A stretch of DNA of 64,000 nt from Dehalococcoidia bacterium (GTDB taxonomy: Bacteria > Chloroflexota > Dehalococcoidia > UBA2979): contig QZJI01000016.1 in the NCBI GenBank assembly GCA_003599735.1, forward strand, positions 1,923 through 65,922. Reading direction: 5' to 3'. Positions within the stretch are counted from its first letter, which is position 1; each line of letters opens with the position of its first letter. The notes below the pieces were generated by a model. The model was not told the DNA's origin. It did no database searches and saw only the letters and a program-made list of their open reading frames with translations. A program made the translations under genes and the position numbers. This document shows, in pieces, positions 6,601-47,387 of the stretch.

Positions 6601-7452
6601 ATGACCACTGCCGTCGAACCGGCCCACCAGACTGCGACCATGAACGGCCTGCTTTTGCATTATGTCGAATACCCCTCCCCTCGCGTCAGCGCGCCGGTGA
6701 TGCTGTTTCTCCACGGCCTCACAAGCGTCTGGGGCTCGTGGCGTCGCGTCGCGGAGCATTTCGCCGCTGACTACCATGTCTACCTGCTCGAACAGCGCGG
6801 GCACGGCGACTCGGAGTGGGCGCCCGCCGACCGGTATCGCACGGAGGACTACCTCGCCGACCTTGAGGTGTTTGTAGACCAGATGGGGTTCCAGCGGCTC
6901 ATCCTGGTGGGCCAGTCGATGGGCGGACACCACACCATCGCGTACACGGCAAAGCACCCGGATCGCATCATCTCCGCGCTCGCGAATGACATCCCTCCCG
7001 CGCTGAACCTCGACGTACCCGACCGCCTGGCGAATCAAGAAAAGCAATACCCCGGCGGGAAGCACCGCGTCTTTGCGACGCCGGCGGAATGGACAGAGAC
7101 GCGCCGCCCAACGGCGCCGCTGACGCCAGAATGGGCGCATGCACTCATGGAGCGCGAGGCCCTGAAGCAGGTTCCCGGCGGCTGGTCACCGAAACACGAC
7201 CCGAATGCCCCGATGCACTGGCAGCCCGCCGACCTCTGGGATGCCGCACGGACGATCACGCGGCCGATCTTTTTCATCCGAGGTGGGCGATCGCAGGTGC
7301 TGTCCGCGCAAGCGCTCCAGGACATGGACATGGCGATTCCGACGGCGCGCTCCGTGACGCTGGAGAAAGCCGGCCATTCGACGTACCACGACATGGAGCG
7401 CGAATGGATCACCATCGCCTCCGCGTTCTTCGCGGCACACGCGTCCGCGTAA
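6601..7452 (+). CDS. alpha/beta hydrolase fold protein
   Basis: HGLTS oxyanion region, nucleophile elbow GQSMGG and a C-terminal GHSTYHD histidine. ATG 6601 is preceded by a GAGGGA SD. The upstream part of ORF 6427 overlaps bcp on the other strand. Confidence 0.85.
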   Translation: MTTAVEPAHQTATMNGLLLHYVEYPSPRVSAPVMLFLHGLTSVWGSWRRVAEHFAADYHVYLLEQRGHGDSEWAPADRYRTEDYLADLEVFVDQMGFQRLILVGQSMGGHHTIAYTAKHPDRIISALANDIPPALNLDVPDRLANQEKQYPGGKHRVFATPAEWTETRRPTAPLTPEWAHALMEREALKQVPGGWSPKHDPNAPMHWQPADLWDAARTITRPIFFIRGGRSQVLSAQALQDMDMAIPTARSVTLEKAGHSTYHDMEREWITIASAFFAAHASA

Positions 7453-7473
7453 CAGGCAGGCGAGGGTAAACCC

Positions 7474-8769
7474 ATGGCATGGAGCGGATCGAGGCCGGGC
7501 GGTGCGCCCGCGGTCGGCGGCTCGCGCTGGGGTGCGCTCTCGTCCGGGCCCTTCCGTCTCTACTGGGTCGCGATGTTCTCACGTGTCTTTGGTTTGCAGT
7601 TCCGCTTCATCGGCACGGGCTGGCTCGTCGCCTCGAAGGACGGGCTCGACATGGACCCGCTCTGGATCGGGATCGTCGCCATATCCTCGGCGGTCCCTAC
7701 CATCGTGCTCAGTGTCCCGGCGGGCATCCTGGCGGACCGGTACGAGCACCGAAAGATCCTGTTCTGGTCGCAGAGCCTGACGGCCGTCTCCAGTTTCGCA
7801 CTTGCGCTTGCGGTCATCGGCGGCGTTGTGAACATCTGGATGGTGATCGCGTGGGGCGTCTTCACCGGCGCCCTGGCGGCACTGGCCAACCCTGCCTATA
7901 GCGCGATTCTGCCGAGGTTGATCGATATGCGTTCGATGGCGAGCGCGGTGGCGATGGTGTCCACGGTGTGGAACACGATGCGGGTGGTGGGGCCCGCGGC
8001 GGCCGGGGTGCTGATCGCGGTCATCGGCATCGGCCAGGCGTTTTTTGTGACGGCGGCCGGGTTCGCCCTTTCCACCCTCCTACTGCAGATGGTCACGTTG
8101 AAGCCGGTCGCACCTCGGCCGGCCGGACCGGACGGCGGAATGCTCGAAGGCATCCGGCACATCGCGCGGGAGCCGATTTTCCTCGCGACGATCGGGCTGT
8201 CCTTCTTCACATCGGTATTTGGTGGGTCGTATCAGGCCCTGCTGCCGATCTTCGCTGATGACATCCTCAAGGTCGGACCGACCGGGTTCGGATGGATGGA
8301 GGCCGCGGCGGGCATTGGTGGGTTCCTTGGGACGTTTGCGATCATCCGCATCGGGACCGGTGGCCGTGCCGGGGTGGTGATGTCGGTCGCGGCCGCGCTG
8401 TTCGGGGTGTGCATCGCCGGCTTCGCCTACTCGCGAGTATTCCCGCTGTCGCTTGCCCTGCTCTTCGCGGGCGGCTTTGCCTCTTCGATGTACCTCAACC
8501 TAGGGATGACGACGCTACAGCTGCGTGTGCCGGATGAGCTCCGGGGCCGCGTGATGGGCGTGTGGTCGATGACCTACTTCATGGCGCAGCTGGGGGGCCT
8601 CCCCGCCGGCGCACTGGCCCAGTGGCTGGGTGCTCCGGCAGCCGTCGCCATTGGTGCGCTCTCCGTAACGGCGTTCGCATTGATTGTCCTGGCCTCGGCG
8701 CCGGCACTGCGGCAGATGTCCACGATGGCCGTTGCAGGGACCGCCGGCGCTTCGGGCGGCGGCGGGTAA
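7474..8769 (+). CDS. MFS transporter
   Basis: 431 aa, roughly 12 hydrophobic segments, with an MFS-type GILADRYEHRK loop between TM2 and TM3. Confidence 0.85.
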   Translation: MAWSGSRPGGAPAVGGSRWGALSSGPFRLYWVAMFSRVFGLQFRFIGTGWLVASKDGLDMDPLWIGIVAISSAVPTIVLSVPAGILADRYEHRKILFWSQSLTAVSSFALALAVIGGVVNIWMVIAWGVFTGALAALANPAYSAILPRLIDMRSMASAVAMVSTVWNTMRVVGPAAAGVLIAVIGIGQAFFVTAAGFALSTLLLQMVTLKPVAPRPAGPDGGMLEGIRHIAREPIFLATIGLSFFTSVFGGSYQALLPIFADDILKVGPTGFGWMEAAAGIGGFLGTFAIIRIGTGGRAGVVMSVAAALFGVCIAGFAYSRVFPLSLALLFAGGFASSMYLNLGMTTLQLRVPDELRGRVMGVWSMTYFMAQLGGLPAGALAQWLGAPAAVAIGALSVTAFALIVLASAPALRQMSTMAVAGTAGASGGGG

Positions 8770-35617: not shown

Positions 35618-36427
35618 CTACCAACCCGCCCCGGTCGTCGCCGCACCGCCGAGGAGCACACGCAGCGTCTCCTCGTGCAGCGCGCCGTTCGAGGTGACGC
35701 AGTGGCCGGCGTCGATCGTGGGGACGCCTCGGTCGTCGGTCAGGCGGCCGCCCGCCTCTTCGAGGATCACGACCAGCGCGGCGATGTCCCACGGGCTGAT
35801 GTCGCCTTCGAGTGCCACCTCGGCCGCGCCCTCCGCGACGAGGCAGTGCTGCCAGAAGTCGCCGTAGCCGCGCGTCCGCCACGCCGAGCGCAGCAGCCCG
35901 GTAAAGCCCGGCCAGCGGTCCGCCGTGTACCGCCACGCGCCGTACAGCACCTGCGCGGCATCGAGGCGTGCCACCGGCGAGACGTGGATCCGCTCCCCCG
36001 CGTGCGACCGCGCGCCGGTCGCGCCGCGGTACGCCCCCAGCCCGCGCCCGGCCCACCACCGCGTCCCGAGCGCCGGCGCCGAGGCCACCCCCGCCTCGAT
36101 CCGTCCGTCCACCTCGACGGCGATCAGCGAGGCCCACACCGGCAGGCCGCGCGTGAACCCGTGCGTCCCGTCGATCGGGTCGATGATCCACCGCGTGCCG
36201 GAGGCCCCCGGCGTATGCCCCTGCTCCTCGCCGAGGATGGCGTGCTCCGGGTACCGCGCGACGATCAACTCGCGCAGCCGCGCCTCCACCGCCTTGTCCG
36301 CGAGCGTGACGAGCGACCCGTCCGCCTTCGCCTCTGTCCCGAGTTCACCTCGATAGAACCCCATCGAGACGCGGTCCGCCTCATCAGCGAGTTCGAGGGC
36401 GAAGGCGAGGAGGGAGGAGGTGGTCAC
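35618..36427 (-). CDS. hisN: inositol monophosphatase family protein, probable histidinol-phosphatase HisN
   Basis: IMPase motifs GEE, WIIDPIDGT and WDIAA. Last gene of the his array. The GTG start overlaps the upstream stop (GTGA). Confidence 0.78.
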   Translation of the reverse strand: MTTSSLLAFALELADEADRVSMGFYRGELGTEAKADGSLVTLADKAVEARLRELIVARYPEHAILGEEQGHTPGASGTRWIIDPIDGTHGFTRGLPVWASLIAVEVDGRIEAGVASAPALGTRWWAGRGLGAYRGATGARSHAGERIHVSPVARLDAAQVLYGAWRYTADRWPGFTGLLRSAWRTRGYGDFWQHCLVAEGAAEVALEGDISPWDIAALVVILEEAGGRLTDDRGVPTIDAGHCVTSNGALHEETLRVLLGGAATTGAGW

Positions 36428-36774
36428 AGTGGACGGATCTCGATCCAGTACCAGTCGCGGCTCGCGATGCGTTCCGTGTAGTGGAACTCAACGATGTTGT
36501 GGTCATCGTCGATGAGCCACGGTGCGTCCGCGTTCCCGCGACGCTGAATGACATCCGCGACACCATTCGCCAGATTCAAAGCATCGGCCTGCGAGGGCTG
36601 ACGCTCATAGTGCATCACCATCGACAATCGCTGGCCTTCCAGGCGCTCCTCCGGCGGAACTGTCGACATCGCTTCGCGCAACGCTGCGATGCGCTGGGCG
36701 TGAGGATGCCCTTCGGAACGCATCGACTTGGCGGTGTTCTTGATCGGCGGCGGTCCCTCGACCTCGATGCGCAT
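36424..36774 (-). CDS. hypothetical protein (116 aa), possible RusA-like fold
   Basis: ATG 36774 follows a GGGGG SD, 10 nt after the hisB stop. There is a by-eye resemblance to RusA (I.V.G.PPpK N-terminus, D-x-x-N-L...V.D, then LIDDD..IVE). GC3 is lower than in neighbours. Confidence 0.5.
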   Translation of the reverse strand: MRIEVEGPPPIKNTAKSMRSEGHPHAQRIAALREAMSTVPPEERLEGQRLSMVMHYERQPSQADALNLANGVADVIQRRGNADAPWLIDDDHNIVEFHYTERIASRDWYWIEIRPL

Positions 36775-36784
36775 TATTACCCCC

Positions 36785-37393
36785 CTACGTCGTCAGCGTC
36801 CCCTTGGTCGACGGCACGGAACCGGCGATGCGGGAGTCGAGGGTGGTGGCGGCGTCGAGGGCGCGGCCGAGCGCCTTCATCGTCGCTTCGGCGACGTGGT
36901 GGTCGTTCGCGCCGGCGAGCATCCGGACGTGCAGCGTGATCTGCGCCGTCGTCGCGAACGAGCGCAGGATGTGCGCCACCATCTCGGTGGGGGCCTCGCC
37001 GATCCGCTCGCCGGTGAACGCGAGGTTGACGGCGGCGAACGGCCGGCCGGAGATGTCGATCACGGCCTGGACCAGCGCCTCGTCCAGCGGCACCAGCGCG
37101 TCGCCCATGCGCACGATCCCCGCGCGGTCGCCGAGCGCTTCGTCGAACGCCTGGCCGACGGCGAGCGCCACGTCCTCCATTGTGTGGTGGGCGTCCACCT
37201 GCAGGTCCCCGGCCGCGCGGATCGTCAGGTCGAAGCGGCCGTGCTTCGCGAACGCCGCCCACATGTGGTCGTAGAACCCGATGCCCGTCTCGACGTCGGA
37301 CTGCCCGGTGCCGTCCACGGTCAACGCCACCGAGATGGTCGTCTCCGCGGTCATGCGCGAGACGGTCGACGCCCTGAGTGCCTGATTAACCAC
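36785..37393 (-). CDS. hisB: imidazoleglycerol-phosphate dehydratase
   Basis: GIGFYDHM, HHTMEDVALAVGQA and NDHHVAEA motifs. GTG 37393 follows a GAGGAG SD with 7-nt spacing. The alternative GTG 37408 is possible. Confidence 0.9.
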   Translation of the reverse strand: MVNQALRASTVSRMTAETTISVALTVDGTGQSDVETGIGFYDHMWAAFAKHGRFDLTIRAAGDLQVDAHHTMEDVALAVGQAFDEALGDRAGIVRMGDALVPLDEALVQAVIDISGRPFAAVNLAFTGERIGEAPTEMVAHILRSFATTAQITLHVRMLAGANDHHVAEATMKALGRALDAATTLDSRIAGSVPSTKGTLTT

Positions 37394-38516
37394 GGGCCTG
37401 CTCCTCACCGATCTCGCGGAATGCCGCGATCACCCGGTCATTCTGCTCCGGCGTGCCAATCGAGATGCGGATGTGGTCGCGCAGCCTCGGCGTGTCGAAG
37501 AAGCGCGGGAAGATCCCGCGCTTCCGCAGGCTGTCCCGCACCGCCTTGCCCTCGATCCGCTGGCCTTCGCGACCCAGACGCAGCAGCACGAAGACCGCCT
37601 CCGAGGGGTACGGGTGCAGCCAGCCGAGGCCGGCGAGCGCCGCGCTGATTCGCTCGCGTTCCGTCGCCAGCGTCCGCGCCCGCTCGTCGAGGATCGCCGT
37701 GTCCTCGAACGAGGCGAGCGCGGCGGCCTCGGCGGCGGCGTTGATGTTGTACGGCTGCTTCGTCCGCATCAGCAGATCGGCGACCTGGGGGTGCATCACC
37801 CCGTAGCCGAAGCGCAGCCCGGCCAGCCCGCCCCACTTCGAGAGCGTGCGCAGCACGACGAGCCCTGGTTCGGTCGCCGCACGGCGTGCCAGCGAGAGCG
37901 TGTGCGAGAACTCGATGTACGCCTCGTCCAGGACGACAAGCGCCCCGGTGCCGAGCAGCCGCTCGACCAGCGCGACCGGGACGGTGTTCCCCGTCGGGTT
38001 GTTCGGCGACGGGATGAAGACGGCCTTCGACTCGCGCGCGGCCGCCTCCAGCCCCTCGAAGTCGAACGCCCAGCCCTCGAGCAGTGGGACGTCGACGACC
38101 TCGCCGCCGTGCAGCGCCGCGTCGAAGGCGTACATGCCGAAGGTGGGCGAGGCGGTGACGATCCGGTCGCCCTCGCCGATGAACAGCCGGAACAGCAGGT
38201 CGATGATCTCGTCGCTGCCGCTCCCGCACACCACTGACTCCGCAGGGACATCGAGGTACCTCGAGATCGCGGCACGCAGCCGACGCTGGCCGGCGTCGCC
38301 GTACCGGTGTGGCTGGTAGTCGCCGCGCAGCGCCTCCAGCGCCTTCGGCGACGGCCCGTACGGGTTCTCGTTCCCGTCGACCTTCACCACCGTCGCCGGG
38401 TCGACGCCGTACTGGCGGGCGACGGCGTCGAGGTCCTCGAGGGCCGCGTACGCCGGGATCGAGCGCAGCGCGGGACGCAGCGCCTCCTGCGGGTCGAAGC
38501 GACGCACGGCGCCCAT
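37386..38516 (-). CDS. hisC: histidinol-phosphate aminotransferase
   Basis: Class II aminotransferase with the PLP-Lys block LRTLSKWGGLAGLRFGY and NPNNPTG. The ATG abuts the hisD stop. Confidence 0.92.
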   Translation of the reverse strand: MGAVRRFDPQEALRPALRSIPAYAALEDLDAVARQYGVDPATVVKVDGNENPYGPSPKALEALRGDYQPHRYGDAGQRRLRAAISRYLDVPAESVVCGSGSDEIIDLLFRLFIGEGDRIVTASPTFGMYAFDAALHGGEVVDVPLLEGWAFDFEGLEAAARESKAVFIPSPNNPTGNTVPVALVERLLGTGALVVLDEAYIEFSHTLSLARRAATEPGLVVLRTLSKWGGLAGLRFGYGVMHPQVADLLMRTKQPYNINAAAEAAALASFEDTAILDERARTLATERERISAALAGLGWLHPYPSEAVFVLLRLGREGQRIEGKAVRDSLRKRGIFPRFFDTPRLRDHIRISIGTPEQNDRVIAAFREIGEEQARG

Positions 38517-39860
38517 CTAGCGCCCCTCCAGCCGGCGCTCGATGCTGCGGGCGTGCCCCGTCAGCCCCTCGGCGCGCGCGAGGCTCGCGGCGTACGGCCC
38601 GAGGCGCATGAGGTCGGCGTCCGTCAGCGCGACGATTGAGGTCACCTTGAGGAAGTCGAGGATCGAGAGCGGTGACGCGAACCGCGCCGCGCCGCCCGTG
38701 GGCATGACGTGCGACGGCCCGGCCGTGTAGTCGCCCAGCACCTCGGGAGACGACTCGCCGAGGAACACGCCGCCGGCGTTCCGCACGAGCGGCAGCAGCG
38801 CCTCGGGGTCCTCGACCAGCAGGCAGAGGTGCTCCGGCGCGAACTCGTTGGCGAGCGCGACGGCCTCCTCCAGGTCGCGGGCGACGACGGCGCCGCCGCG
38901 CTCGATCGCCGAACGCGCGATCACGTGCCGCTCCAGCGACGGCAGTTGCTCCTCGACCGCGGCGGCGACCGCCTCGGCCTGCGCCAGCGAGATCGTGATC
39001 AGCACCGGCGTGGCAAGCACGTCGTGCTCCGCCTGCGCGAGCAGGTCGGCGGCGCACATCGCCGGGTCGGCGTAGTTGTCCGCGAGCACAAGCGTCTCCG
39101 TGGGGCCATAGACCGAGTCGATCCCCACACGCCCGTACAGCTGTTGCTTGGCGATCGTCACGAAGATGCCGCCGGGGCCGAAGATCTTGTCGACGCGCGG
39201 GATCGACTCGGTCCCGAAGGCGAGCGCGGCGACCGCCTGCGCGCCCGAGGCGCGGAAGACACGCGTGACGCCGGAGAGGCGCGCCGCGACCAGCTTCAGC
39301 GGGTTCACGCTGCCGTCCGCGCGCGCCGCCGTCACCCCGATGACGTCCTCGACACCCGCGACGACGCCTGGCACCGCGGTGTGGATGACCGAGGACGGCA
39401 GGACCGCCTCGTTCCCGGTCATGTAGATGCCGGCACGCTGCAACGGGCGCACGAGCATCCCCGTGCCGCGCGCGCTGAACGAGGTGGGCGCGTGCTCCAT
39501 CTGCGTCTCGTGGTAGCGGCGCACCCGTTCGACGGCGAACGCGATGGCGTCGTGCTCTTCGGGGCTCACGCGCTCGAAGGCGTCGCCGACCTCGTCGTCG
39601 CTGACCTCGATGGTCGCGTACGAGGAACCGTCGAAGCGCTGGGAGAAGCGGGTGACCGCGGCGTCGCCCTCCGCGCGCACGGCGTCGATGATCCGCCGGA
39701 CGTGCTCGGCGGCGGTGGTGGGCGCGCCCCAGAGCTCGTTGATCCCCTGCTGGACGGCGTCGGGAAGCACCGGCTCAGCGAGCGCCGTCCGCAGGAGGAC
39801 GGTGCGCCGCGCCTCGTCCAGGTCGGTCACCACGCGCAGGGAGCGCACAGAGGAAGTCAT
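38517..39860 (-). CDS. hisD: histidinol dehydrogenase
   Basis: Full-length HisD-like sequence (GPGGIFV, GPTETLVLAD, AEH, GDYTAGPSHVMPTGG). ATG 39860 lies 10 nt after the upstream stop, with a GAGG SD. Confidence 0.93.
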   Translation of the reverse strand: MTSSVRSLRVVTDLDEARRTVLLRTALAEPVLPDAVQQGINELWGAPTTAAEHVRRIIDAVRAEGDAAVTRFSQRFDGSSYATIEVSDDEVGDAFERVSPEEHDAIAFAVERVRRYHETQMEHAPTSFSARGTGMLVRPLQRAGIYMTGNEAVLPSSVIHTAVPGVVAGVEDVIGVTAARADGSVNPLKLVAARLSGVTRVFRASGAQAVAALAFGTESIPRVDKIFGPGGIFVTIAKQQLYGRVGIDSVYGPTETLVLADNYADPAMCAADLLAQAEHDVLATPVLITISLAQAEAVAAAVEEQLPSLERHVIARSAIERGGAVVARDLEEAVALANEFAPEHLCLLVEDPEALLPLVRNAGGVFLGESSPEVLGDYTAGPSHVMPTGGAARFASPLSILDFLKVTSIVALTDADLMRLGPYAASLARAEGLTGHARSIERRLEGR

Positions 39861-39870
39861 CGTTGGAACC

Positions 39871-40620
39871 TCATCGCAGGTACGAGCGCACGCGCGCTTC
39901 CATTCGGTCAGTCGCGTCACGCCAGAACCGCTCGATCCGCTCCTCCGAGACGACGCCGAACGCCTCTCGGATCAGACTGTGCGGGTCCTCGCAGGACGCC
40001 TCGATCGCGGCGGCGTCGTACCCCGCCCCCTCGAGGTGGCGCATCATCATCCGCCGGAAGCGCGAGTAGTCCGCCGCCTGGCCCGCCACGTCCGCCGAGA
40101 CGGTCATCCACTGTGCAAGGTGTTCGTCCGCGATGAACGGGATGCCGCGCACCGGGACAGTCGCCTCGATGGCGGCGCGCACCTCGGCCATCGCCGCCTC
40201 GTCCTCGCGGTCACGCCGGTCCATCTCGTATTGCAATGCGCGGTCGAGGACGTTCGCCTTCGGCTCTTCCTTGAGCGGCGAGAACGCGCCGAACGATGGC
40301 CGGTAGACCTCGCTGATGAACGTCTCGTCCAGGACGAGGTGGGTGAGGTACCCCGCGATGAACGCCGTCGTCGCGGCGTCGAGCCCCGCGGGTGTCGCGA
40401 GCGCCGGGTGCGCCTCGAACATCCGCGCTACACCGTCCTGGTCGCCGAAGTCCTTCAGGTCGAAAAAGTGGGTGACGGCTCGGTCGAGCCGCGTGATCAC
40501 GCGGATGTCCGGCGCCGTCGCGCCCAGGTAGAACGCACCCCGGTCGGCGTCCACCTCGGGCAGCGCGAGGCGGGCAGCGAGCTGCCGTGCGCGTGCGAGG
40601 TGTGACCCGAGCGAAGGCAT
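39871..40620 (-). CDS. putative metal-dependent hydrolase (zinc-dependent phospholipase C-like family)
   Basis: N-terminal LGSH and later AGYLTHLVLDE histidine/aspartate blocks resemble the bacterial Zn-PLC-like family (recalled by eye). GGAGAAGGGG SD directly after the hisG stop. Confidence 0.5.
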   Translation of the reverse strand: MPSLGSHLARARQLAARLALPEVDADRGAFYLGATAPDIRVITRLDRAVTHFFDLKDFGDQDGVARMFEAHPALATPAGLDAATTAFIAGYLTHLVLDETFISEVYRPSFGAFSPLKEEPKANVLDRALQYEMDRRDREDEAAMAEVRAAIEATVPVRGIPFIADEHLAQWMTVSADVAGQAADYSRFRRMMMRHLEGAGYDAAAIEASCEDPHSLIREAFGVVSEERIERFWRDATDRMEARVRSYLR

Positions 40621-40642
40621 CGTCCCGCCCCTTCTCCGGACG

Positions 40643-42058
40643 TCAGACCGCGGCTTCGGCCGCCGCGCGCAGCCGTGCCACGTACTCCGCCCGCCGCGCC
40701 CCGCGTGCCCCCTCGGGTGCGGTCGCGTGGCCGATCACGCAGTTCGTCGACTCCATGATCACGTCGATCATACGCAGCCGGTTGGCCCGCAGCGTCGTCC
40801 CCGTCTCGGTGCCCTCGATCAGGATCTCGGCGTCTTCCGGCACGAAGCCCTCTGACGCGCCGGAAATGGGGATGACCCGGTACCGGCCGAGGTGGCGCGT
40901 CCGTGCGTACTCGTCTGCGAGGCTCGCGTATTCGGAGGCGACGCGGATCGGGAACTCCGGGTCATCGCGCCGCCAGAGCGCGATCGCCTCCTCGATGTTC
41001 TCCACCGGGAGGTCCTCGCTGATCACGGCGCCCATCTGGTATTTCGACCGCTTCAGGTCGCACAGCTCCGTCACCGGCGCGGCCGGGAACGTTGCGAGGA
41101 ACGCGCGCAGCCAGTCCCGTCCGCTGATCGCGAGGTCGAAATGGCCGAGGGCGACCGCCCGTGGCATGTCCTGCGGCCGCATCACTTTCACCTCGATCCC
41201 TGGGTCGCCCGATTCCGGATACCGCACGGACGAGGTCGCCTCGTACCCGGGGAACGCGATGCCCGCGTCCGCGAGCGCGGCGACGGTGTGGCGCTGCGCG
41301 TGCCCGTCCGGCACGGCGATACGGAACCGCTCGCGCGCCGGGGCGACCGTCGAGGTCCCGCGCGTGACCGCGAGCGGTGTCGGGTCGACGAGGCCGCCCT
41401 CGGCCGTCGCCCGCGCCAGCGACAGCAGCGGCCCAAGCGCCGCCGAGAGGTCGCGGGTCGCGAGCGCCTCGCGGTTCGCGATCAGCCAGACCCCGCTCCG
41501 GTGGACGGTGCCGAGGACCGCGAGCCCCTCCTTCGCCACGGCCGAGGCCGGGGCGATGGCGAGTTCGGCGTCGCGCGGCGGCCACGCCTCGGCCTGTGCC
41601 CAGACTTCGTAGAGCCGGTAGTCCGGGACGCGCAGCCGCGTCAGATAGTGGTGGGCGATCTGCGGGTACTCGGTCGCGACACGCACGATGCCCGCGCCCG
41701 CGAGGCTCGCGAGGTCCGCTCCCGGCGCGCCCGCGACCACCAGCGTTTCACCCTCGATGTCGAGCGGACGCAGCGGTACCACGGAGTCGTGTCGATAGCG
41801 CACCAGCAGCTCGTCGATCCACGTCCCGCTTGCGATGCCGAGGTCGTACTGGCCGAGGGCTACCTGGATCGGGATGTCCTGGTCGGAGAAGACGCGCACC
41901 TGCACGCCCTCGATCCCGTCGACGTCGAAGCGGTACGTGCGCGAACCTTCGAGGTAGCCCTGCGCGCGGAACCCCGCAGCCGCCAGGCGCTCACCGACCG
42001 GCGTGCGCAGGTCGCCCCGTGGCACCGCCACGCGCACTGGACGCGTCGAGGCACTCAC
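40643..42058 (-). CDS. hisG: ATP phosphoribosyltransferase, internally duplicated (two HisG catalytic-fold modules)
   Basis: The halves align: VRVAVPRGDL.../FRIAVPDGHA..., IPIQVALGQYDLGIASG/MPRAVALGHFDLAISG, RVATEYPQIA/RVASEYASLA. Only the C-terminal half carries the PRPP loop EGTETGTTLRANRL (40775-40816). GTG 42058 overlaps the hisZ stop (GTGA). Confidence 0.8.
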   Translation of the reverse strand: MSASTRPVRVAVPRGDLRTPVGERLAAAGFRAQGYLEGSRTYRFDVDGIEGVQVRVFSDQDIPIQVALGQYDLGIASGTWIDELLVRYRHDSVVPLRPLDIEGETLVVAGAPGADLASLAGAGIVRVATEYPQIAHHYLTRLRVPDYRLYEVWAQAEAWPPRDAELAIAPASAVAKEGLAVLGTVHRSGVWLIANREALATRDLSAALGPLLSLARATAEGGLVDPTPLAVTRGTSTVAPARERFRIAVPDGHAQRHTVAALADAGIAFPGYEATSSVRYPESGDPGIEVKVMRPQDMPRAVALGHFDLAISGRDWLRAFLATFPAAPVTELCDLKRSKYQMGAVISEDLPVENIEEAIALWRRDDPEFPIRVASEYASLADEYARTRHLGRYRVIPISGASEGFVPEDAEILIEGTETGTTLRANRLRMIDVIMESTNCVIGHATAPEGARGARRAEYVARLRAAAEAAV

Positions 42059-43041
42059 GATGCGACCTCGGCGAGACGCAGGAGGTCGGCGCCCCATCCG
42101 CACGCGGGCGCGGCCGCGCCGCCCAGCGTCTGGGTGAGGCCGTCGTACCGTCCGCCCCCGAGGAGGGTGCGTCCGTCCGTGCCGGAGCCTTGGCGGAACC
42201 GGAACGTCACGCCGCTGTAGTACTCGAAGTTACGCGCCGTCGCGGCCAGCACCCGGTACGGCACGCCCGTGCCATCAAGCGCCGCCGCCGTCCGTGCGAG
42301 GTCATCGATGGGCGCGGCCGCGGCCGGCACCGTGGCGAGCATCGCCGCGCGCAGGTTCTGGATGTAGCCGGCCGATGCACCATCGACACCGGTGAGCAGC
42401 CGCAGGCTCGCGGCCTGGTCCGGGTGTGCCTGCGCGAGCCGTTCTGTGACGCCCGCGTCGCCCTCTAGCATCAGGTCGTACGCTTCCACCTGCTGCGTGG
42501 GAGATAGCCCGGCAGCGGCGAACGCGGCGCGTACCAGCCCCGCGTGCGCGAGGTCGACCGTGAAGTCGCCTCCGCTGAGGCCGCGCAGGAACGTCGCGGC
42601 GAGCGTCAGCAGTTCCGCATCGCCCTCAGCGGCAGCGGGGCCGAAGAGCTCGACGCCGCATTGCCAGACCTCGCGGTCGCCGTCCACGGCGAAGCGGTAG
42701 ACCGGGGCGACGTACGCGACGCGCGCTGTCGAGGATCCCCCCGCGCGGACCGCGTCGGCGTACCAGCGCGCCGCGGCGACCGTCGCGTCCGGCCGGAGCA
42801 CGACTCGCTCGCCGCTCCACCCGTCCCAGTCGAGGAAGGAATACACGCGTTCCAACGCTTGTGGGGAGAGCGTCCCGGCCGCCGTGTAGAGGTGCAGCGG
42901 CTCGATCGTCGGCGTCCGGATCTCGAGATAGCCCGCGCCTTCGACAGCATCGAGGAACCGCCGCTCGACCGCGCGGAACCGCCGCATCTCCGCCGGGCCG
43001 AAGTCGCGCATACCGGGGCTGTGGAGGCCTCGATCGGGCAT
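42055..43041 (-). CDS. hisZ: ATP phosphoribosyltransferase regulatory subunit (HisRS paralog)
   Basis: PGMRDFGP...LRPDATVAAARW class II aaRS-like core without an anticodon-binding domain. ATG 43041 follows a GAGGAG SD with 6-nt spacing. The upstream 100 codons of the track ORF are Arg/Thr-rich non-coding leader. Confidence 0.85.
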   Translation of the reverse strand: MPDRGLHSPGMRDFGPAEMRRFRAVERRFLDAVEGAGYLEIRTPTIEPLHLYTAAGTLSPQALERVYSFLDWDGWSGERVVLRPDATVAAARWYADAVRAGGSSTARVAYVAPVYRFAVDGDREVWQCGVELFGPAAAEGDAELLTLAATFLRGLSGGDFTVDLAHAGLVRAAFAAAGLSPTQQVEAYDLMLEGDAGVTERLAQAHPDQAASLRLLTGVDGASAGYIQNLRAAMLATVPAAAAPIDDLARTAAALDGTGVPYRVLAATARNFEYYSGVTFRFRQGSGTDGRTLLGGGRYDGLTQTLGGAAAPACGWGADLLRLAEVAS

Positions 43042-43150
43042 GGACGGCTCCTCGGCTGTGGTGCGTCGCGGGGCGGACGGGTTCGCGGTCATTCTACGGG
43101 CCTCACTCTCTGACGGGTGCGGGACATCGAGGTCGGCGGGACACGGTAAT

Positions 43151-43179
43151 GCGCCCGCGACGGCCTGCCGTCGTGGCGC
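43151..43179 (-). terminator. attenuator terminator hairpin (segments 3:4) of the his leader
   Basis: GCGCCACGACGGC (43179-43167) pairs with GCCGTCGCGGGCGC (43164-51), about 11 bp with one mismatch and one bulge. Segment 3 can alternatively pair over 13 bp with GCCGTCGTGCGCGC (43235-43222). Confidence 0.5.
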
Positions 43180-43207
43180 TCCTGCGTGCCTGGATCGGTT
43201 GGATCGG

Positions 43208-43309
43208 CTAGCGGTGCAGACGCGCGCACGACGGCGTGCCATGCGCATGAGCCGCGTGGGCGGAGTGCGCGTGGCCGGCGTGCGCGTGGACGAAGTGCGT
43301 CTGTCGCAT
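43208..43309 (-). CDS. hisL: his operon leader peptide candidate (33 aa, 9 His)
   Basis: Translates to MRQTHFVHAHAGHAHSAHAAHAHGTPSCARLHR. Eight of the nine His codons fall in a 19-codon window. It lies 167 nt upstream of hisZ. There is no SD, but a -10-like box ends 9 nt before the ATG. Confidence 0.55.
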   Translation of the reverse strand: MRQTHFVHAHAGHAHSAHAAHAHGTPSCARLHR

Positions 43310-43318
43310 GATGAATCG

Positions 43319-43347
43319 AGGCTACGGGTGCCCTCGGTTACCGGCAA
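43319..43347 (-). promoter_or_regulatory. promoter candidate for the his leader (TTGCCG-17 nt-TAGCCT)
   Basis: On the minus strand, TTGCCG lies at 43347-43342 and TAGCCT at 43324-43319. The ATG of the leader ORF begins 9 nt downstream, which would give a leaderless or near-leaderless transcript. Confidence 0.3.
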
Positions 43348-43348
43348 C

Positions 43349-44128
43349 CTACCGTCGGATCGTCGTCACGTCCCCGGCTGCGAACGCGCGGCGCGTGCCA
43401 TCGGCCAGCGCCAGCACCAGTTCACCCGTCGAGGTCACGTCCACCGCTTCGCCCTCGACCTCTCCGGAAGGCGTCGCGAGGCGCACCTGCTGCCCGATGG
43501 TGATCAACCGCGCCCGCCATTCCGCAAGCAGTGCCGCCGGCTCGGTCTCGGCCTGTGCCGCGCGCCGGTCGAATGCCGTCGACAGCGCCGCCAGCAGCAC
43601 CTCGCGGGGCGGGGCGGGGTGGCCCGCTCCTTCGATGCTCGTGGCGATTGCCCCTACCTCCGGCGGCAGCTCCGGGGCGGTACGAAGGTTGATCCCGATT
43701 CCCACAAACACGTCCAGGGCTGTCCCGCGTGGCCGCGCTTCGGCCAGGATGCCCGCCAGTTTCTTGCCCTTCACCTGGAGGTCGTTCGGCCACTTCAGGT
43801 CGACGGCGAGTCCGCACGCCGCCTGGATCGCCTCGGCGGCCGCGACCGCGGCGGCCAGCCCGAGCAGCGGTGCTCCCTCCGCCCGCGTGGGACAGAGGTG
43901 GTAGGTCACGTACAGCCCCGCAGCGGCGGCGGATACCCACGAGCGACCCTGGCGGCCGCGACCGGCGCTCTGCTCACCTGCCATGTACGCGGTGCCGCAC
44001 GGACGCCCCTCGGCTGCCCCCTCCCGCGCGTCGTCCATTGTCGATGTCGTCGTTTCGACGTACACCACCTCTGCACCCACGCGGGAGGAGTGGCGAAGGC
44101 TGTGGTAGCGGGCGAGGTCGAACGGCAT
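43349..44128 (-). CDS. birA: biotin-[acetyl-CoA-carboxylase] ligase (group I, no HTH domain)
   Basis: GRGRQGRSW biotin-binding loop and DLKWPNDL. At 259 aa it has no N-terminal repressor domain. Confidence 0.88.
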   Translation of the reverse strand: MPFDLARYHSLRHSSRVGAEVVYVETTTSTMDDAREGAAEGRPCGTAYMAGEQSAGRGRQGRSWVSAAAAGLYVTYHLCPTRAEGAPLLGLAAAVAAAEAIQAACGLAVDLKWPNDLQVKGKKLAGILAEARPRGTALDVFVGIGINLRTAPELPPEVGAIATSIEGAGHPAPPREVLLAALSTAFDRRAAQAETEPAALLAEWRARLITIGQQVRLATPSGEVEGEAVDVTSTGELVLALADGTRRAFAAGDVTTIRR

Positions 44129-44241
44129 GCACGCACCGTAGCGAGGTGTGCAGGTCGATGCGAGAGGGTCGAGGGGGATTTCTGGAGCGCGTAGGGGGCA
44201 TTCTTCAGGACGCCCGGATCCAGCTCACGGCACATAAGCGT

Positions 44242-44277
44242 GAGGGGCGTCCCCATGGGGACGCCCCTCCGTTTTGT
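44242..44277 (+). terminator. perfect 28-nt palindrome followed by CGTTTTGT on the plus strand (orphan intrinsic-terminator-like element)
   Basis: GAGGGGCGTCCCCA/TGGGGACGCCCCTC at 44242-44269, then a T tract at 44270-44277. On the minus strand it is preceded by an A tract and followed by only a few U. Confidence 0.5.
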
Positions 44278-44383
44278 AGGCCACTCAGGACCGGGGGTTA
44301 AGTTTCGGCCACCTCCACGTGTGGCCGGCCCGGTTGGTGACTACTGTCATCGGTCACGCGCATCACCCCCTTTCCTGCCGCTG

Positions 44384-44412
44384 ACACTAGAGAACGCCGA
44401 TCCGCTTGTCAA
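44384..44412 (-). promoter_or_regulatory. sigma70-like promoter candidate (TTGACA-17 nt-TAGTGT) reading toward birA
   Basis: On the minus strand, TTGACA lies at 44412-44407 and TAGTGT at 44389-44384, 41 nt downstream of the aminotransferase stop. Confidence 0.4.
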
Positions 44413-44452
44413 CAGGTCTCGATAGGGGATGTGATCATTTGTTTTTCCGCGG

Positions 44453-45808
44453 TTACGAGCCCGTGACGGCTTTCACAGCCGCCGCCGCGGAGGCAACCAT
44501 CTGGTCAACTTCAGCACCGTTGATGCTCAGTGGCGGGGCAAAGAGCACGTTGTCCCCCACCACCCGAGTGATGAGTGAGCCCTGCTCGCGCATGTGCCGC
44601 TGCACCTTGATCGCCATCGTTTCGGATGCGTCATATGGCGTATTCGCAGCGGCGTCTCGCATCAGCGTGAAGCCGGCGATGAGACCCAGCCAGCGGAGGT
44701 TCGCGACGTGCGGGTGCTTGCCCAGAGCGGCCTGCAGCCCCTCGCCCAACCGCTCGCCCATCTTCGTCGCGTTCTCCAGCAAGCCCTCGTCCTCGAAAAT
44801 CTGCAGGTTCCGCAGGCCGACGGCAGCCGCCGTGGGATGGGCCGAGTTCGTGTAGGCGTGCATGAACCGCGCGTCGGGTGGCAGGTCGTGTAGCGCCTCG
44901 CTGATCTCGGTGGAGACGATGAACGCGCCCATCGGGATGTAGCCGGAGGTGATCGCCTTCGCGATCGAGACGATGTCCGGGTTCACGCCCCATCGCTGCA
45001 GGGCGAACCAGTACCCGGTCCGCCCGAAGCCCGTGATCACCTCGTCTGCGATGAACAAGACGTCGTACCGGTCACAGATCTCGCGCACCTTCGCGAAGTA
45101 GTCGGGGGCTGGCGTCCACACCCCACCCGCGCCCTTCACCGGCTCCGCAATGAACGCGGCCACGGTGTCCGCACCTTCACGCTTGATCGCCTCCTCCAGC
45201 CAGTGCGCGCACTCCCCGTCCGTGTTCGGGGTGCAGTCGCACTCGAGGTTGTCCGGCTTCTTCGTGTGGACGACCTCGGGGACCAGCGGCCCGAAGTACT
45301 TCCAGAACACCGGCAGCCCGGTCATCGAGGATGCCGCGAGGGTGCCGCCGTGGTACGAGCGTTCCCGCGCGATGATCTTCACTTTGGTCGGGCGGCCTTT
45401 CAGGTTCCAGTAGAACCGTGCCGTCTTGAACGCACCCTCGTTTGACTCGGACCCGGAGTTTGTGAAGAAGACCGCCGCCATGTTGTCGTAGCAGAGGTCA
45501 ATGACCTTCGAGGCGAGTTTGATCGCCGGGACGTTCGAGAACCCTACATAGTTGTTGGTGAATGCGACCTTCCGCATCTGCTCCGCCGCCGCGTCCGCCA
45601 GTTCGCCTCGTCCGTGGCCGACGGCGACGTTCCAGAGCGACGAGAGGCCATCGATATACCGGCGGCCCTGCAGGTCGGTCAGCCAGACCCCCTCGCCGTG
45701 GTCGAAGATCACCGGCTGCTGGTGGTCGGGGGCGTAGTACTGCGGGTGGAGGAGGTGCGCGAGGTCCTCGCGCGTAAGGTCGGTGTACGTCTGGGGGTCG
45801 ATGGCCAC
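44453..45808 (-). CDS. class III (omega-type) PLP aminotransferase
   Basis: GLSSLWNVAVGHGR, TNSGSESNE and FIADEVITGFGRTG. GTG 45808 follows an AAGGAG SD with 6-nt spacing. The 110-codon extension in the track overlaps murE and was rejected. Confidence 0.88.
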   Translation of the reverse strand: MAIDPQTYTDLTREDLAHLLHPQYYAPDHQQPVIFDHGEGVWLTDLQGRRYIDGLSSLWNVAVGHGRGELADAAAEQMRKVAFTNNYVGFSNVPAIKLASKVIDLCYDNMAAVFFTNSGSESNEGAFKTARFYWNLKGRPTKVKIIARERSYHGGTLAASSMTGLPVFWKYFGPLVPEVVHTKKPDNLECDCTPNTDGECAHWLEEAIKREGADTVAAFIAEPVKGAGGVWTPAPDYFAKVREICDRYDVLFIADEVITGFGRTGYWFALQRWGVNPDIVSIAKAITSGYIPMGAFIVSTEISEALHDLPPDARFMHAYTNSAHPTAAAVGLRNLQIFEDEGLLENATKMGERLGEGLQAALGKHPHVANLRWLGLIAGFTLMRDAAANTPYDASETMAIKVQRHMREQGSLITRVVGDNVLFAPPLSINGAEVDQMVASAAAAVKAVTGS

Positions 45809-45845
45809 GGACGGCTCCTTCGAGAAGACGGGGCGAGTCCGGAGT

Positions 45846-47387
45846 CTACCCGAACCGCCGCGCAATCTCCTCGCGTGCCACGACGCGGTCGTCGAACGGC
45901 ACCGCGCCGCTGGCGTACTCAATCGTCGTCTCGTGCCCCTTGCCGGCGATGAGCACGAGGTCGCCCGGCTGTGCGATCTCAAGCGCGCGCGCGATGGCGG
46001 CTCGGCGGTCGGGGATGCGTTCGAATCGCTCGCCTTCAATCGCTCCGGCGGCCCGCATCGCCTGGGCGATGTCGTCGATGATCGCCTCGGACGCCTCCGA
46101 GCGTGGATCTTCGTCGGCGAGGATTGTGAAGTCGACACTGGCGGCGGCGGCCGCTCCCATTCCGGTGCGACGCTCCTTGCCGCGCTCCCCAGCGCAGCCG
46201 AAGACCGCGATCAGCCGCCCGTTGGTCACCTCGCGGAGCGTCTCCGCCGCATGGTGGAGCGCCTCTCCCGTATGCGCGTAGTCGACAACCACCGGGAATG
46301 GCGCACCCGTAATCCGTTCCATGCGACCGGGTACCCCTGCGCAGGCGGCGACGCCCATCGCCGCCGCCCCGACGTCGAGGCCGATGGCGCTGGCACAGGT
46401 GATCGCAGCGGCTGCATTCGCCACGTTGAACTCGCCGGGGAGGCGCACGCTGCACTCGACCGACTCGTCCTCTTCGTCGGCGGTCAGTGCGAAGGTGGAG
46501 CCGTCGTCCCACAACATCACGTCGTCCACGGTGACGTCGGCCTCGTCGTCGTGCAGCGCATAGGTGACCACGCGCGCCTTCGTCCGGCTGGCAAAATAGC
46601 GCCACGCCGGGTCGTCCTGGTTCAGGACCGCGACCCCCGGCGAGTGGCCGTGCCCGCCGGCTGGCAACATCTCAAAGAGCCGCCCCTTCGCTTTTCGGTA
46701 CGCCTCGACGGTGCCGTGGAAGTCGAGGTGGTCCGGCGTCAGGTTCGTGAAGATCGCGGCGTGGAATTCGCATGCGTCCACCCGGTGCAGGTCGAGTCCG
46801 ATCGAGGTCGCCTCGATCACCGCGTGCGTGCAGCCGGCATCGACCATTTCGGCAAGCAGCTGCTGCACGAATGGCGCCTCCTGCGAGGTGAGCCGCGTGG
46901 GGTTCGGGATCGTCCGGCCGGCGATCCGGCACTCGATGGTGGTGAGCAGCCCGGCCTTCAGCCCGGCACCTTCGAGGGCCGCCACCATGAAGAAGCACGT
47001 CGTTGACTTTCCATCCGTCCCGGTCACGCCGATAACGGTCAGCTTCTTCGCCGGGTAGTCCTCGTGTGCCGCGCTGACCTGCGCCATCGTTGCCCGCGGG
47101 TTCGGGACCCCGACCACCGGCACGCCGAGGCCGCCCATCTCTGCCTCGCGCCCCGCGACGCAGACAAGCGCGACCGCGCCGCGCTCGACAGCGGCCCGCG
47201 CGAACGCGTGCCCGTCCGCCCGCTCGCCTGGCATGCAGATGAAGAGGTCGCCCGCCTCCACCTGGCGGGAGTCAAACTGGACCGCCCGGACAGCAGGTGG
47301 GAGCGCTACGCGCACCTCGTCGGGGACGGAGGTCGGCAGGCCGCGTCGCCAGTCGCCACGTGCGAGATTCGAGGGTGGCTGGGTCAT
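45846..47387 (-). CDS. murE: UDP-N-acetylmuramoyl-L-alanyl-D-glutamate--2,6-diaminopimelate ligase
   Basis: Mur ligase P-loop GVTGTDGKSTT. DNPR-like region ILADEDPRSE consistent with meso-DAP-adding MurE. Confidence 0.92.
   Translation of the reverse strand: MTQPPSNLARGDWRRGLPTSVPDEVRVALPPAVRAVQFDSRQVEAGDLFICMPGERADGHAFARAAVERGAVALVCVAGREAEMGGLGVPVVGVPNPRATMAQVSAAHEDYPAKKLTVIGVTGTDGKSTTCFFMVAALEGAGLKAGLLTTIECRIAGRTIPNPTRLTSQEAPFVQQLLAEMVDAGCTHAVIEATSIGLDLHRVDACEFHAAIFTNLTPDHLDFHGTVEAYRKAKGRLFEMLPAGGHGHSPGVAVLNQDDPAWRYFASRTKARVVTYALHDDEADVTVDDVMLWDDGSTFALTADEEDESVECSVRLPGEFNVANAAAAITCASAIGLDVGAAAMGVAACAGVPGRMERITGAPFPVVVDYAHTGEALHHAAETLREVTNGRLIAVFGCAGERGKERRTGMGAAAAASVDFTILADEDPRSEASEAIIDDIAQAMRAAGAIEGERFERIPDRRAAIARALEIAQPGDLVLIAGKGHETTIEYASGAVPFDDRVVAREEIARRFG

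Follow-up and report, generated by a model that had tools for sequence, protein, structure and literature searches.

A tandem HisG encoded beside hisZ in Dehalococcoidia joins two paralogues with reciprocal active-site losses

Reviews of ATP phosphoribosyltransferase (ATP-PRT) distinguish two forms of the enzyme, a long form that assembles as a homo-hexamer and a short form, HisGS, that assembles with HisZ as a hetero-octamer (PMC8305728, PMC9734150, PMC10795190). The short HisGS chain measures 214 +/- 9 aa (PMC8305728), its assembly is given as HisZ4:HisGS4 (PMC10795190), and a dimeric catalytic core is common to long and short forms (Mittelstaedt et al. 2018, via PMC10795190). In P. arcticus HisGS, R56 of one subunit crosses the dimer interface and is salt-bridged to the pyrophosphate of the phosphoribosyl pyrophosphate (PRPP) held in the other subunit; the R32A and R56A substitutions each reduce activity 25- to 42-fold, and these leaving-group arginines, R32 acting in cis and R56 in trans, are described as highly conserved in HisGS (PMC9734150). 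Here we analyze a gene that fits neither form. It lies in a 64-kb stretch of DNA from a Dehalococcoidia bacterium (64,000 nucleotides of contig QZJI01000016.1, hereafter the window) and encodes two non-identical HisG cores in a single chain, immediately 3' of hisZ; we refer to it as hisG'G. Our search of the open-access full-text literature turned up no account of a HisG that is tandem, duplicated or heteromeric, an absence that, given this scope, is no proof.

The gene and its parts, in window coordinates, are the following.

40643-42058, minus strand: hisG'G, tandem ATP phosphoribosyltransferase of 471 aa, two HisG catalytic cores in one chain
42055-42058, minus strand: GTGA overlap between the hisZ stop codon (TGA, 42057-42055) and the hisG'G start codon (GTG, 42058-42056)
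41447-42037, minus strand: N-terminal HisG' domain, residues 8-204, the copy without a P-loop and presumably non-catalytic
41330-41446, minus strand: linker between the domains, residues 205-243, with the lowest conservation
40721-41329, minus strand: C-terminal HisG domain, residues 244-446, the putative catalytic copy by its PF01634 and TIGR00070 scores
40646-40720, minus strand: C-terminal helix tail, residues 447-471, with a helix at 450-470 in the predicted structure

The maximal open reading frame (ORF) reaches a GTG at 42103 and would give 486 aa. A start at 42058 is backed by the homologues, which begin about 8 residues ahead of the 'IRVALP' motif, and a GAGG is located 7 nt 5' of this GTG. 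The four-nucleotide overlap of stop and start codons points to translational coupling of hisZ and hisG'G.

We scored the protein and its two halves separately against HisG family profiles. The whole chain reaches 139.7 bits against PF01634 over two stretches (gathering score 25.5) and 168.5 bits against TIGR00070 (cut-off 75.75), placing it within the HisG family. Taken alone, residues 1-241 score 52.9 bits against PF01634 (E 5.3e-14, profile positions 2-145) and residues 242-471 score 90.5 bits (E 1.4e-25); against TIGR00070 the N half reaches 69.7 bits, under the cut-off, and the C half 103 bits. Aligned to each other, the halves share 29% identity over 173 residues (E 1e-15), a range that encloses all three pairs of matching blocks that the original prediction, made from the letters alone, had quoted. 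A Pfam scan with E up to 10 returned no HisG_C match in hisG'G. That prediction of a tandem HisG-HisG of about 471 aa with a degenerate N-terminal copy, expected to give two Pfam HisG matches and no HisG_C, is borne out by the profiles, the self-alignment, a predicted structure and about 200 homologous loci. The case it named as refuting, an N half that belongs to an unrelated periplasmic-binding-protein-like family, is excluded on the evidence of Pfam, TIGR00070 and Foldseek: the N half is a HisG domain. Mean column conservation is 0.52 in the linker, 0.74 in the N half and 0.83 in the C half; L204, L208 and L211 of the linker are nevertheless invariant, as are P448, G450 and R452 of the C-terminal tail.

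The AlphaFold2 (AF2) model of the full chain, built from a 57-sequence family alignment, has a mean predicted local distance difference test (pLDDT) score of 91.9 and a predicted template-modelling score (pTM) of 0.89, with a pLDDT minimum of about 74 at linker residues 231-240. Confidence across the whole chain indicates a defined mutual arrangement of the two halves. A Foldseek search of the Protein Data Bank (PDB) with this model matched exclusively ATP-PRT chains, each spanning one half, and uncovered no tandem HisG; ATP-PRT chains were also the best PDB matches of the C-terminal domain throughout. The TM-scores, relative to the target, are 0.80-0.86 for most short-form chains and 0.74-0.77 for a few, 0.85-0.86 for the core-only constructs of C. 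jejuni (5UB9, 5UBG), and 0.6-0.65 for full-length long-form chains.

To compare the two copies residue by residue, we placed 132 fused proteins, along with 71 N-like proteins that stand alone, on P. arcticus HisGS numbering, and made a second, independent, smaller alignment that included 21 canonical HisG. The segments that carry the comparison are these.

40790-40816, minus strand: PRPP-binding P-loop EGTETGTTL, residues 415-423, aligned to DVVDTGNTL of P. arcticus HisGS
41519-41572, minus strand: N-half segment DAELAIAPASAVAKEGLA in the place of the PRPP loop, without T-G-x-T
41939-41941, minus strand: codon of Arg40, the equivalent of P. arcticus HisGS Arg56
41300-41308, minus strand: D251-G-H253 of the C half, replacing canonical K-G-R (P. 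arcticus K30-G-R32)

The acidic-x-x-acidic-T-G-x-T-L signature is present in the C half (E415-G-T-E418-T-G-T-T-L423) and missing from the N half. Across the 132 C halves, the P-loop columns corresponding to D176 and D179-T-G-x-T hold Glu in 130, Glu in 126, Thr in 130, Gly in 132 and Thr in 129. Of the 132 fused N halves, 111-116 have lost columns D179-T180-G181, and in the stand-alone N-like copies these columns are random. The R73-P-Q motif behaves likewise, being intact in every C half (132/132) and lost from N-like copies. The original prediction had assigned the PRPP signature to the C half only, which stands, as T-G-x-T occurs there alone, and had read the N-half equivalent as DAELAIAPASAVAKEGLA, which indeed has no T-G-x-T. 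Its coordinates for the C-half signature require correction by 12 nt: the 18-residue segment EILIEGTETGTTLRANRL occupies 40775-40828, and positions 40775-40816 cover only EGTETGTTLRANRL.

The losses run in the other direction as well. The R56 column is Arg in 131 of 132 fused N halves and 69 of 71 stand-alone N-like proteins, but in only 53 of 132 C halves; in the smaller alignment the Arg fraction is 0.96 for N versus 0.04 for C, and the C half of the window protein has Ser at this position (S276/277). All 132 C halves have Asp at K30 and His at R32. N-like copies retain Lys or Arg at K30 and are variable in the R32 column, with D16 in the window protein. Neither domain thus holds both leaving-group arginines, R32 and R56, and across the pair one R56-type Arg is available to the C-half site. 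In the alignment with 21 canonical HisG, the canonical positions retained in the N copy only are R56, Y58, G89 and mostly E98; those retained in the C copy only are P74, Q75, T180, G181, T183 and mostly G92 and D94. Beyond what the original prediction had noted, this makes the degeneration reciprocal, with a putative catalytic C copy that lacks R32 and usually R56, and it extends over a large family.

Nearly all of the best 120 database homologues are 454-497 aa long (two have 432 aa) at 59-95% identity, and the named ones are called 'ATP phosphoribosyltransferase' and come from Dehalococcoidia/Chloroflexota metagenome-assembled genomes (MAGs). A scan of one genome per species yielded 78 loci, all in Dehalococcoidia/Chloroflexota MAGs and some on closed chromosomes. 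Further full-length fused clusters at 37-46% identity appeared in an exhaustive search of 50%-identity representatives, those with names being all Chloroflexota, and a profile search with the N-like domain found the two copies fused in a single frame at 71 of the best 80 metagenome loci. The gene order hisZ, hisG'G, a 249-aa protein, hisD is nearly invariant over the 78 genome loci. Against the closest relatives, the ratio of nonsynonymous to synonymous substitution rates (dN/dS) is 0.025-0.079 in the N half, 0.023-0.039 in the C half and 0.12-0.32 in the linker, so that the degenerate N half is, by these ratios, under purifying selection about as strong as that on the putative catalytic half. 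Encoded within the operon, HisG'G appears to carry out the first step of histidine synthesis across a large section of Chloroflexota that is mostly uncultured.

Public gene calls for this family are often wrong (entries P0402-P0520, P0355/P0386 and P0140). The miscalled entries comprise truncations at internal Met codons (406-447 aa), frameshift splits and one 637-aa HisZ-HisG' chimera with a frameshifted tail. We considered the 406-447 aa length class as a separate form and rejected it, as its members are gene calls of the same fusion that miss part of the N-terminus. Two MAGs with close homologues, L002 (95% identity) and L008 (76%), carry the label 'Dehalococcoides mccartyi'; the label is probably mis-assigned, given the G+C content of about 70% and the aerobic-type gene content of the window.

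The same pair of paralogues also exists unfused. Among the 50%-identity representatives, our search also picked up proteins of about 215-230 aa that have natural C-termini and match the N half only. Reading loci directly, we found hisZ-hisG'-hisG as three genes in Desulfococcaceae bacterium HSG9 (L079), on a 579-kb contig of unknown taxon (L080) and in Candidatus Sumerlaeota (L081), with hisZ of 412-435 aa, an N-like hisG' of 217-226 aa, a C-like hisG of 234-255 aa, and overlapping start and stop codons at both junctions. Further split loci are present in metagenomes (L147, L149, L154). Some of the N-like entries listed as 'stand-alone' are pieces of fused genes, for which reason the evidence for the split form comes from these six loci, the first three of them read directly; the 'split' scores of L098 and L106 appear to be ORF-boundary artefacts and were not counted. 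The taxonomic spread of the split form is described by few named genomes. Stand-alone N-like proteins pass the TIGR00070 equivalog cut-off at 91-106 bits, and a profile-profile comparison with the C-like proteins gives 100% probability (E 1e-41). In a neighbour-joining tree (capped distances, 209 columns, 69 sequences, 500 bootstraps), one clade unites every N-like sequence, whether fused or free (499/500), a second every C-like sequence (465/500) and a third the sampled canonical HisG (451/500). Separate N-like and C-like clades imply that one old duplication gave the HisG'/HisG pair and that the Dehalococcoidia protein is a later fusion. The tree and the split loci point to descent of hisG'G from an adjacent hisG'-hisG gene pair that is still unfused in other phyla.

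The partner gene has kept its place next to this diverged enzyme.

42055-43041, minus strand: hisZ, HisRS-like regulatory subunit, 328 aa from the Met at 43041, without anticodon-binding domain

The HisZ protein matches PF13393 (E 2e-51) at profile positions 1-306 of 308 and ends there. It scores 168.5 bits against TIGR00443 (positions 1-312 of 314; cut-off 271.65) and 149.6 bits against TIGR00442 (hisS), both under the respective cut-offs. It has the features that define HisZ: a paralogue of the catalytic core of histidyl-tRNA synthetase (HisRS), no anticodon-binding domain, and a gene that accompanies hisG. The profile match and the overlap read in the sequence agree with the original prediction that hisZ is still present and coupled to hisG through the GTGA at 42055-42058. 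HisZ retains HisRS-type histidine motifs, with LRPD-T, YYSG and, in the histidine-motif region, GGGRYDGL, and motif 2 FRHE is changed to YRFA. At every locus with enough sequence, among the 78 genome loci and the best 80 metagenome loci, hisZ lies 5' of the fused gene. This universal synteny and the codon overlap make it very probable that HisZ still activates the enzyme and mediates its inhibition by histidine.

In its longest form, the hisZ ORF is extended at the N-terminus by 102 codons (43042-43347, minus strand), which are rich in Arg, Thr and Pro and have no HisZ or HisRS homology. These codons are probably untranslated, with a likely start at Met 43041 (Met103 of the longest ORF). HisZ is longer, about 410-435 aa, in the split systems (L079 4704-6011, L080 4791-6029, L081 4760-6004) and in most of L083-L162, many of them sediment Chloroflexota; compared with the 328-aa HisZ of the window's clade, these proteins have about 100 aa more at the C-terminus. 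In L081, a full-length hisS with HGTP_anticodon (7404-8753) is directly 3' of hisZ-hisG'-hisG, so that a HisRS paralogue adjoins the true synthetase.

We consider it likely that hisG'G encodes a covalent pseudo-dimer with one composite active site that is still regulated by HisZ. HisG' and HisG would most likely pack together in the manner of the HisG dimer that all ATP phosphoribosyltransferases share, here with the protomers covalently joined. The C domain would bind PRPP and ATP, using the P-loop EGTETGTTL, the RPQDMP motif, E403 and E411/E415/E418. Having lost the P-loop, the N domain would be unable to bind PRPP; it would instead hand Arg40 over the interface and stabilize the pyrophosphate leaving group, serving as the source of the only canonical leaving-group arginine. 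With His at R32 in the C domain, the N domain's arginine should be indispensable, and with the mirror-image site dead, the C domain's own R56 position would be free to drift. We infer from this complementary degeneration, as indirect evidence, that the canonical dimer geometry is retained. The pseudo-dimer would then dock on HisZ as the source of activation and histidine feedback, and by analogy with HisZ4:HisGS4 one would expect a HisZ4:(HisG'G)2 complex that has two active sites and not four.

Several observations weigh against this composite-site model. The C halves are gapped around the R56 column and have another conserved Arg three columns on (R279, 127/132) that might stand in for R56. 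Because the C half has D-G-H in place of K30 and R32, its chemistry may depart from the P. arcticus model. The N half retains the cleft residues E157, D163/A164, W153 and W159-P-P and could, given these, bind some ligand. The HisGS-dimer-like packing proposed for the halves is derived from the pTM and from conservation logic. A search confined to the window found no second hisG or hisS, which leaves room for a second canonical hisG elsewhere in these genomes.

The retained cleft leads to the strongest competitor, in which the N domain is a ligand-sensing regulator, for instance of histidine, AMP/ADP or another effector in the degenerate cleft, conserved for allostery or for HisZ docking. Periplasmic-binding-protein-like folds are often ligand sensors, the N half is selected as strongly as the catalytic half, and E157, D163, A164 and W-P-P persist while the P-loop is absent. 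However, the known histidine sensor, HisZ, is retained and coupled, and the residue most strictly retained in N and lost in C is the trans-acting catalytic arginine, which a pure sensor would not predict. We regard this explanation as unlikely, although it deserves to be kept in mind, the more so as a sensor role of the N domain and a composite active site are not mutually exclusive. A covalent dimer with two working sites, in which the N half binds PRPP by a divergent loop, is a good deal harder to maintain. Both halves exceed the Pfam HisG threshold, the stand-alone N-like proteins exceed the TIGR00070 cut-off (91-106 bits), and the N half retains E157 and the acidic D163/E165; but 111-116 of 132 fused N halves have the P-loop columns deleted, these columns are random in stand-alone copies, R73-P-Q and G92/D94 are gone from the N copy, and the R56 equivalent that a second site would need is lost from the C half. 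We judge such an enzyme to be highly improbable.

That the long ORF is itself an artefact, in which a frameshift from sequencing or assembly, or a mis-called read-through, joined two hisG genes, was the other refuting case named in the original prediction. Split two-gene versions in other lineages and truncated or frameshifted database entries of the family lend it some color. An uninterrupted frame in more than 130 fused proteins of independent assemblies, closed chromosomes among them, and purifying selection on the fused gene exclude it for practical purposes, and the linker is partly conserved (L204, L208, L211) with a pLDDT of about 74 or higher; we attach almost no weight to this explanation. 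The composite site, for its part, allows a wider proposal, to which we give slightly better than an even chance: a third class of ATP phosphoribosyltransferase, made of an obligate asymmetric HisG'/HisG pair plus HisZ, in which a dead paralogue gives the sole leaving-group arginine to a single composite site, with three coupled genes encoding it in several phyla and a fused version in Dehalococcoidia.

Beyond hisZ and hisG'G, the compact his operon (35618-43041, minus strand) continues with a Zn_dep_PLPC-like ORF, hisD, hisC, hisB (imidazoleglycerol-phosphate dehydratase, IGPD) and a hisN-like gene, and several of its start and stop codons overlap.

39871-40620, minus strand: 249-aa Zn_dep_PLPC-like protein between hisG'G and hisD, known by operon context, function not assigned
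38517-39920, minus strand: hisD, histidinol dehydrogenase (PF00815, E 1e-138)
37386-38516, minus strand: hisC
36785-37408, minus strand: hisB/IGPD
35618-36427, minus strand: hisN-like gene of the inositol-monophosphatase family, just 3' of hisB (best model TIGR02067, 239.8 bits, cut-off 275)

The 249-aa protein occupies the same operon position at about 70 of the 78 Dehalococcoidia loci. Its window copy scores 24.7 bits against Pfam Zn_dep_PLPC, just under threshold, and 17 of 17 orthologues match the family (best E 8e-9). The residues H7, D38, H51, H94 and D98 are invariant, and these His and Asp look like metal ligands. A PDB profile search with this protein gave no significant match, and its single-sequence AF2 model has a pLDDT of 41.6. 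We considered it as the missing histidinol-phosphate phosphatase and dropped the idea as unnecessary, since an inositol-monophosphatase-type HisN candidate is present at 35618-36427; that gene probably encodes the histidinol-phosphate phosphatase of the operon. Scanning positions 36000-46000 with Rfam gave neither a T-box nor a his leader RNA.

ATP-PRT serves both as a model of allostery and as a target for drugs and engineering, and the two-form picture of the enzyme has a gap. An asymmetric version bears on the trans-arginine and electrostatic-preorganisation mechanism that was proposed from mutants, and the split and fused loci would trace a route from homodimer to obligate heterodimer to fusion. 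The arrangement predicts an altered stoichiometry and possibly altered cooperativity, and the change in stoichiometry and allostery that the original prediction had put forward is plausible; if the third class is real, nature would have produced a half-of-sites variant of an allosteric enzyme that has been studied intensively. Such a class is currently hidden, as databases name both paralogues uniformly 'ATP phosphoribosyltransferase', and this is an annotation problem in its own right: the putatively dead paralogue scores above the NCBIfam equivalog threshold and bears the name of an active enzyme. The system should interest those who work on ATP-PRT allostery, on pseudoenzymes, on the evolution of heterodimers from homodimers and on genome annotation.

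Among known systems, the closest are the HisGS-HisZ enzymes (L. lactis, T. maritima, P. arcticus, A. baumannii; PDB 1Z7M, 1USY, 5M8H, 8OY0). Like them, hisG'G has the HisG core without a C-terminal regulatory domain and an adjacent, translationally coupled hisZ; its C half has the P-loop and the equivalents of E163 and D172/D176/D179, and its dimer would likewise use an R56-type Arg acting in trans. Unlike HisGS, its protomers are different paralogues fused into one chain, one of them without a P-loop, and the putative catalytic protomer has D-G-H for K-G-R32 and usually no R56; each complex is expected to have no more than half as many active sites. By the usual marks of the short form, it lacks HisG_C and has hisZ, but in place of a single-core, homodimer-forming chain of about 200-230 aa it has 471 aa with two non-identical cores. 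The long form HisGL, a homo-hexamer (E. coli 1H3D, M. tuberculosis, C. jejuni 4YB7), shares the same two-domain catalytic core; hisG'G differs from it in having HisZ and no HisG_C, the ACT-like histidine-binding domain, and its length of 471 aa versus about 290 aa reflects a second copy of the core. A parallel outside the family is offered by prozyme-type enzymes (trypanosomatid S-adenosylmethionine decarboxylase/prozyme and deoxyhypusine synthase), in which a homo-oligomer was duplicated and a dead paralogue became obligatory for the activity of the other. Their fold and chemistry are unrelated to those of hisG'G, whose pair is in addition fused in one lineage and retains a third protein, HisZ. 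The hisG'G protein is a member of the HisG family, putatively of the functionally short, HisZ-dependent type, with presumably the same chemistry, and the same fold and partner, as known HisG and a proposed subunit logic that is new and apparently undescribed.

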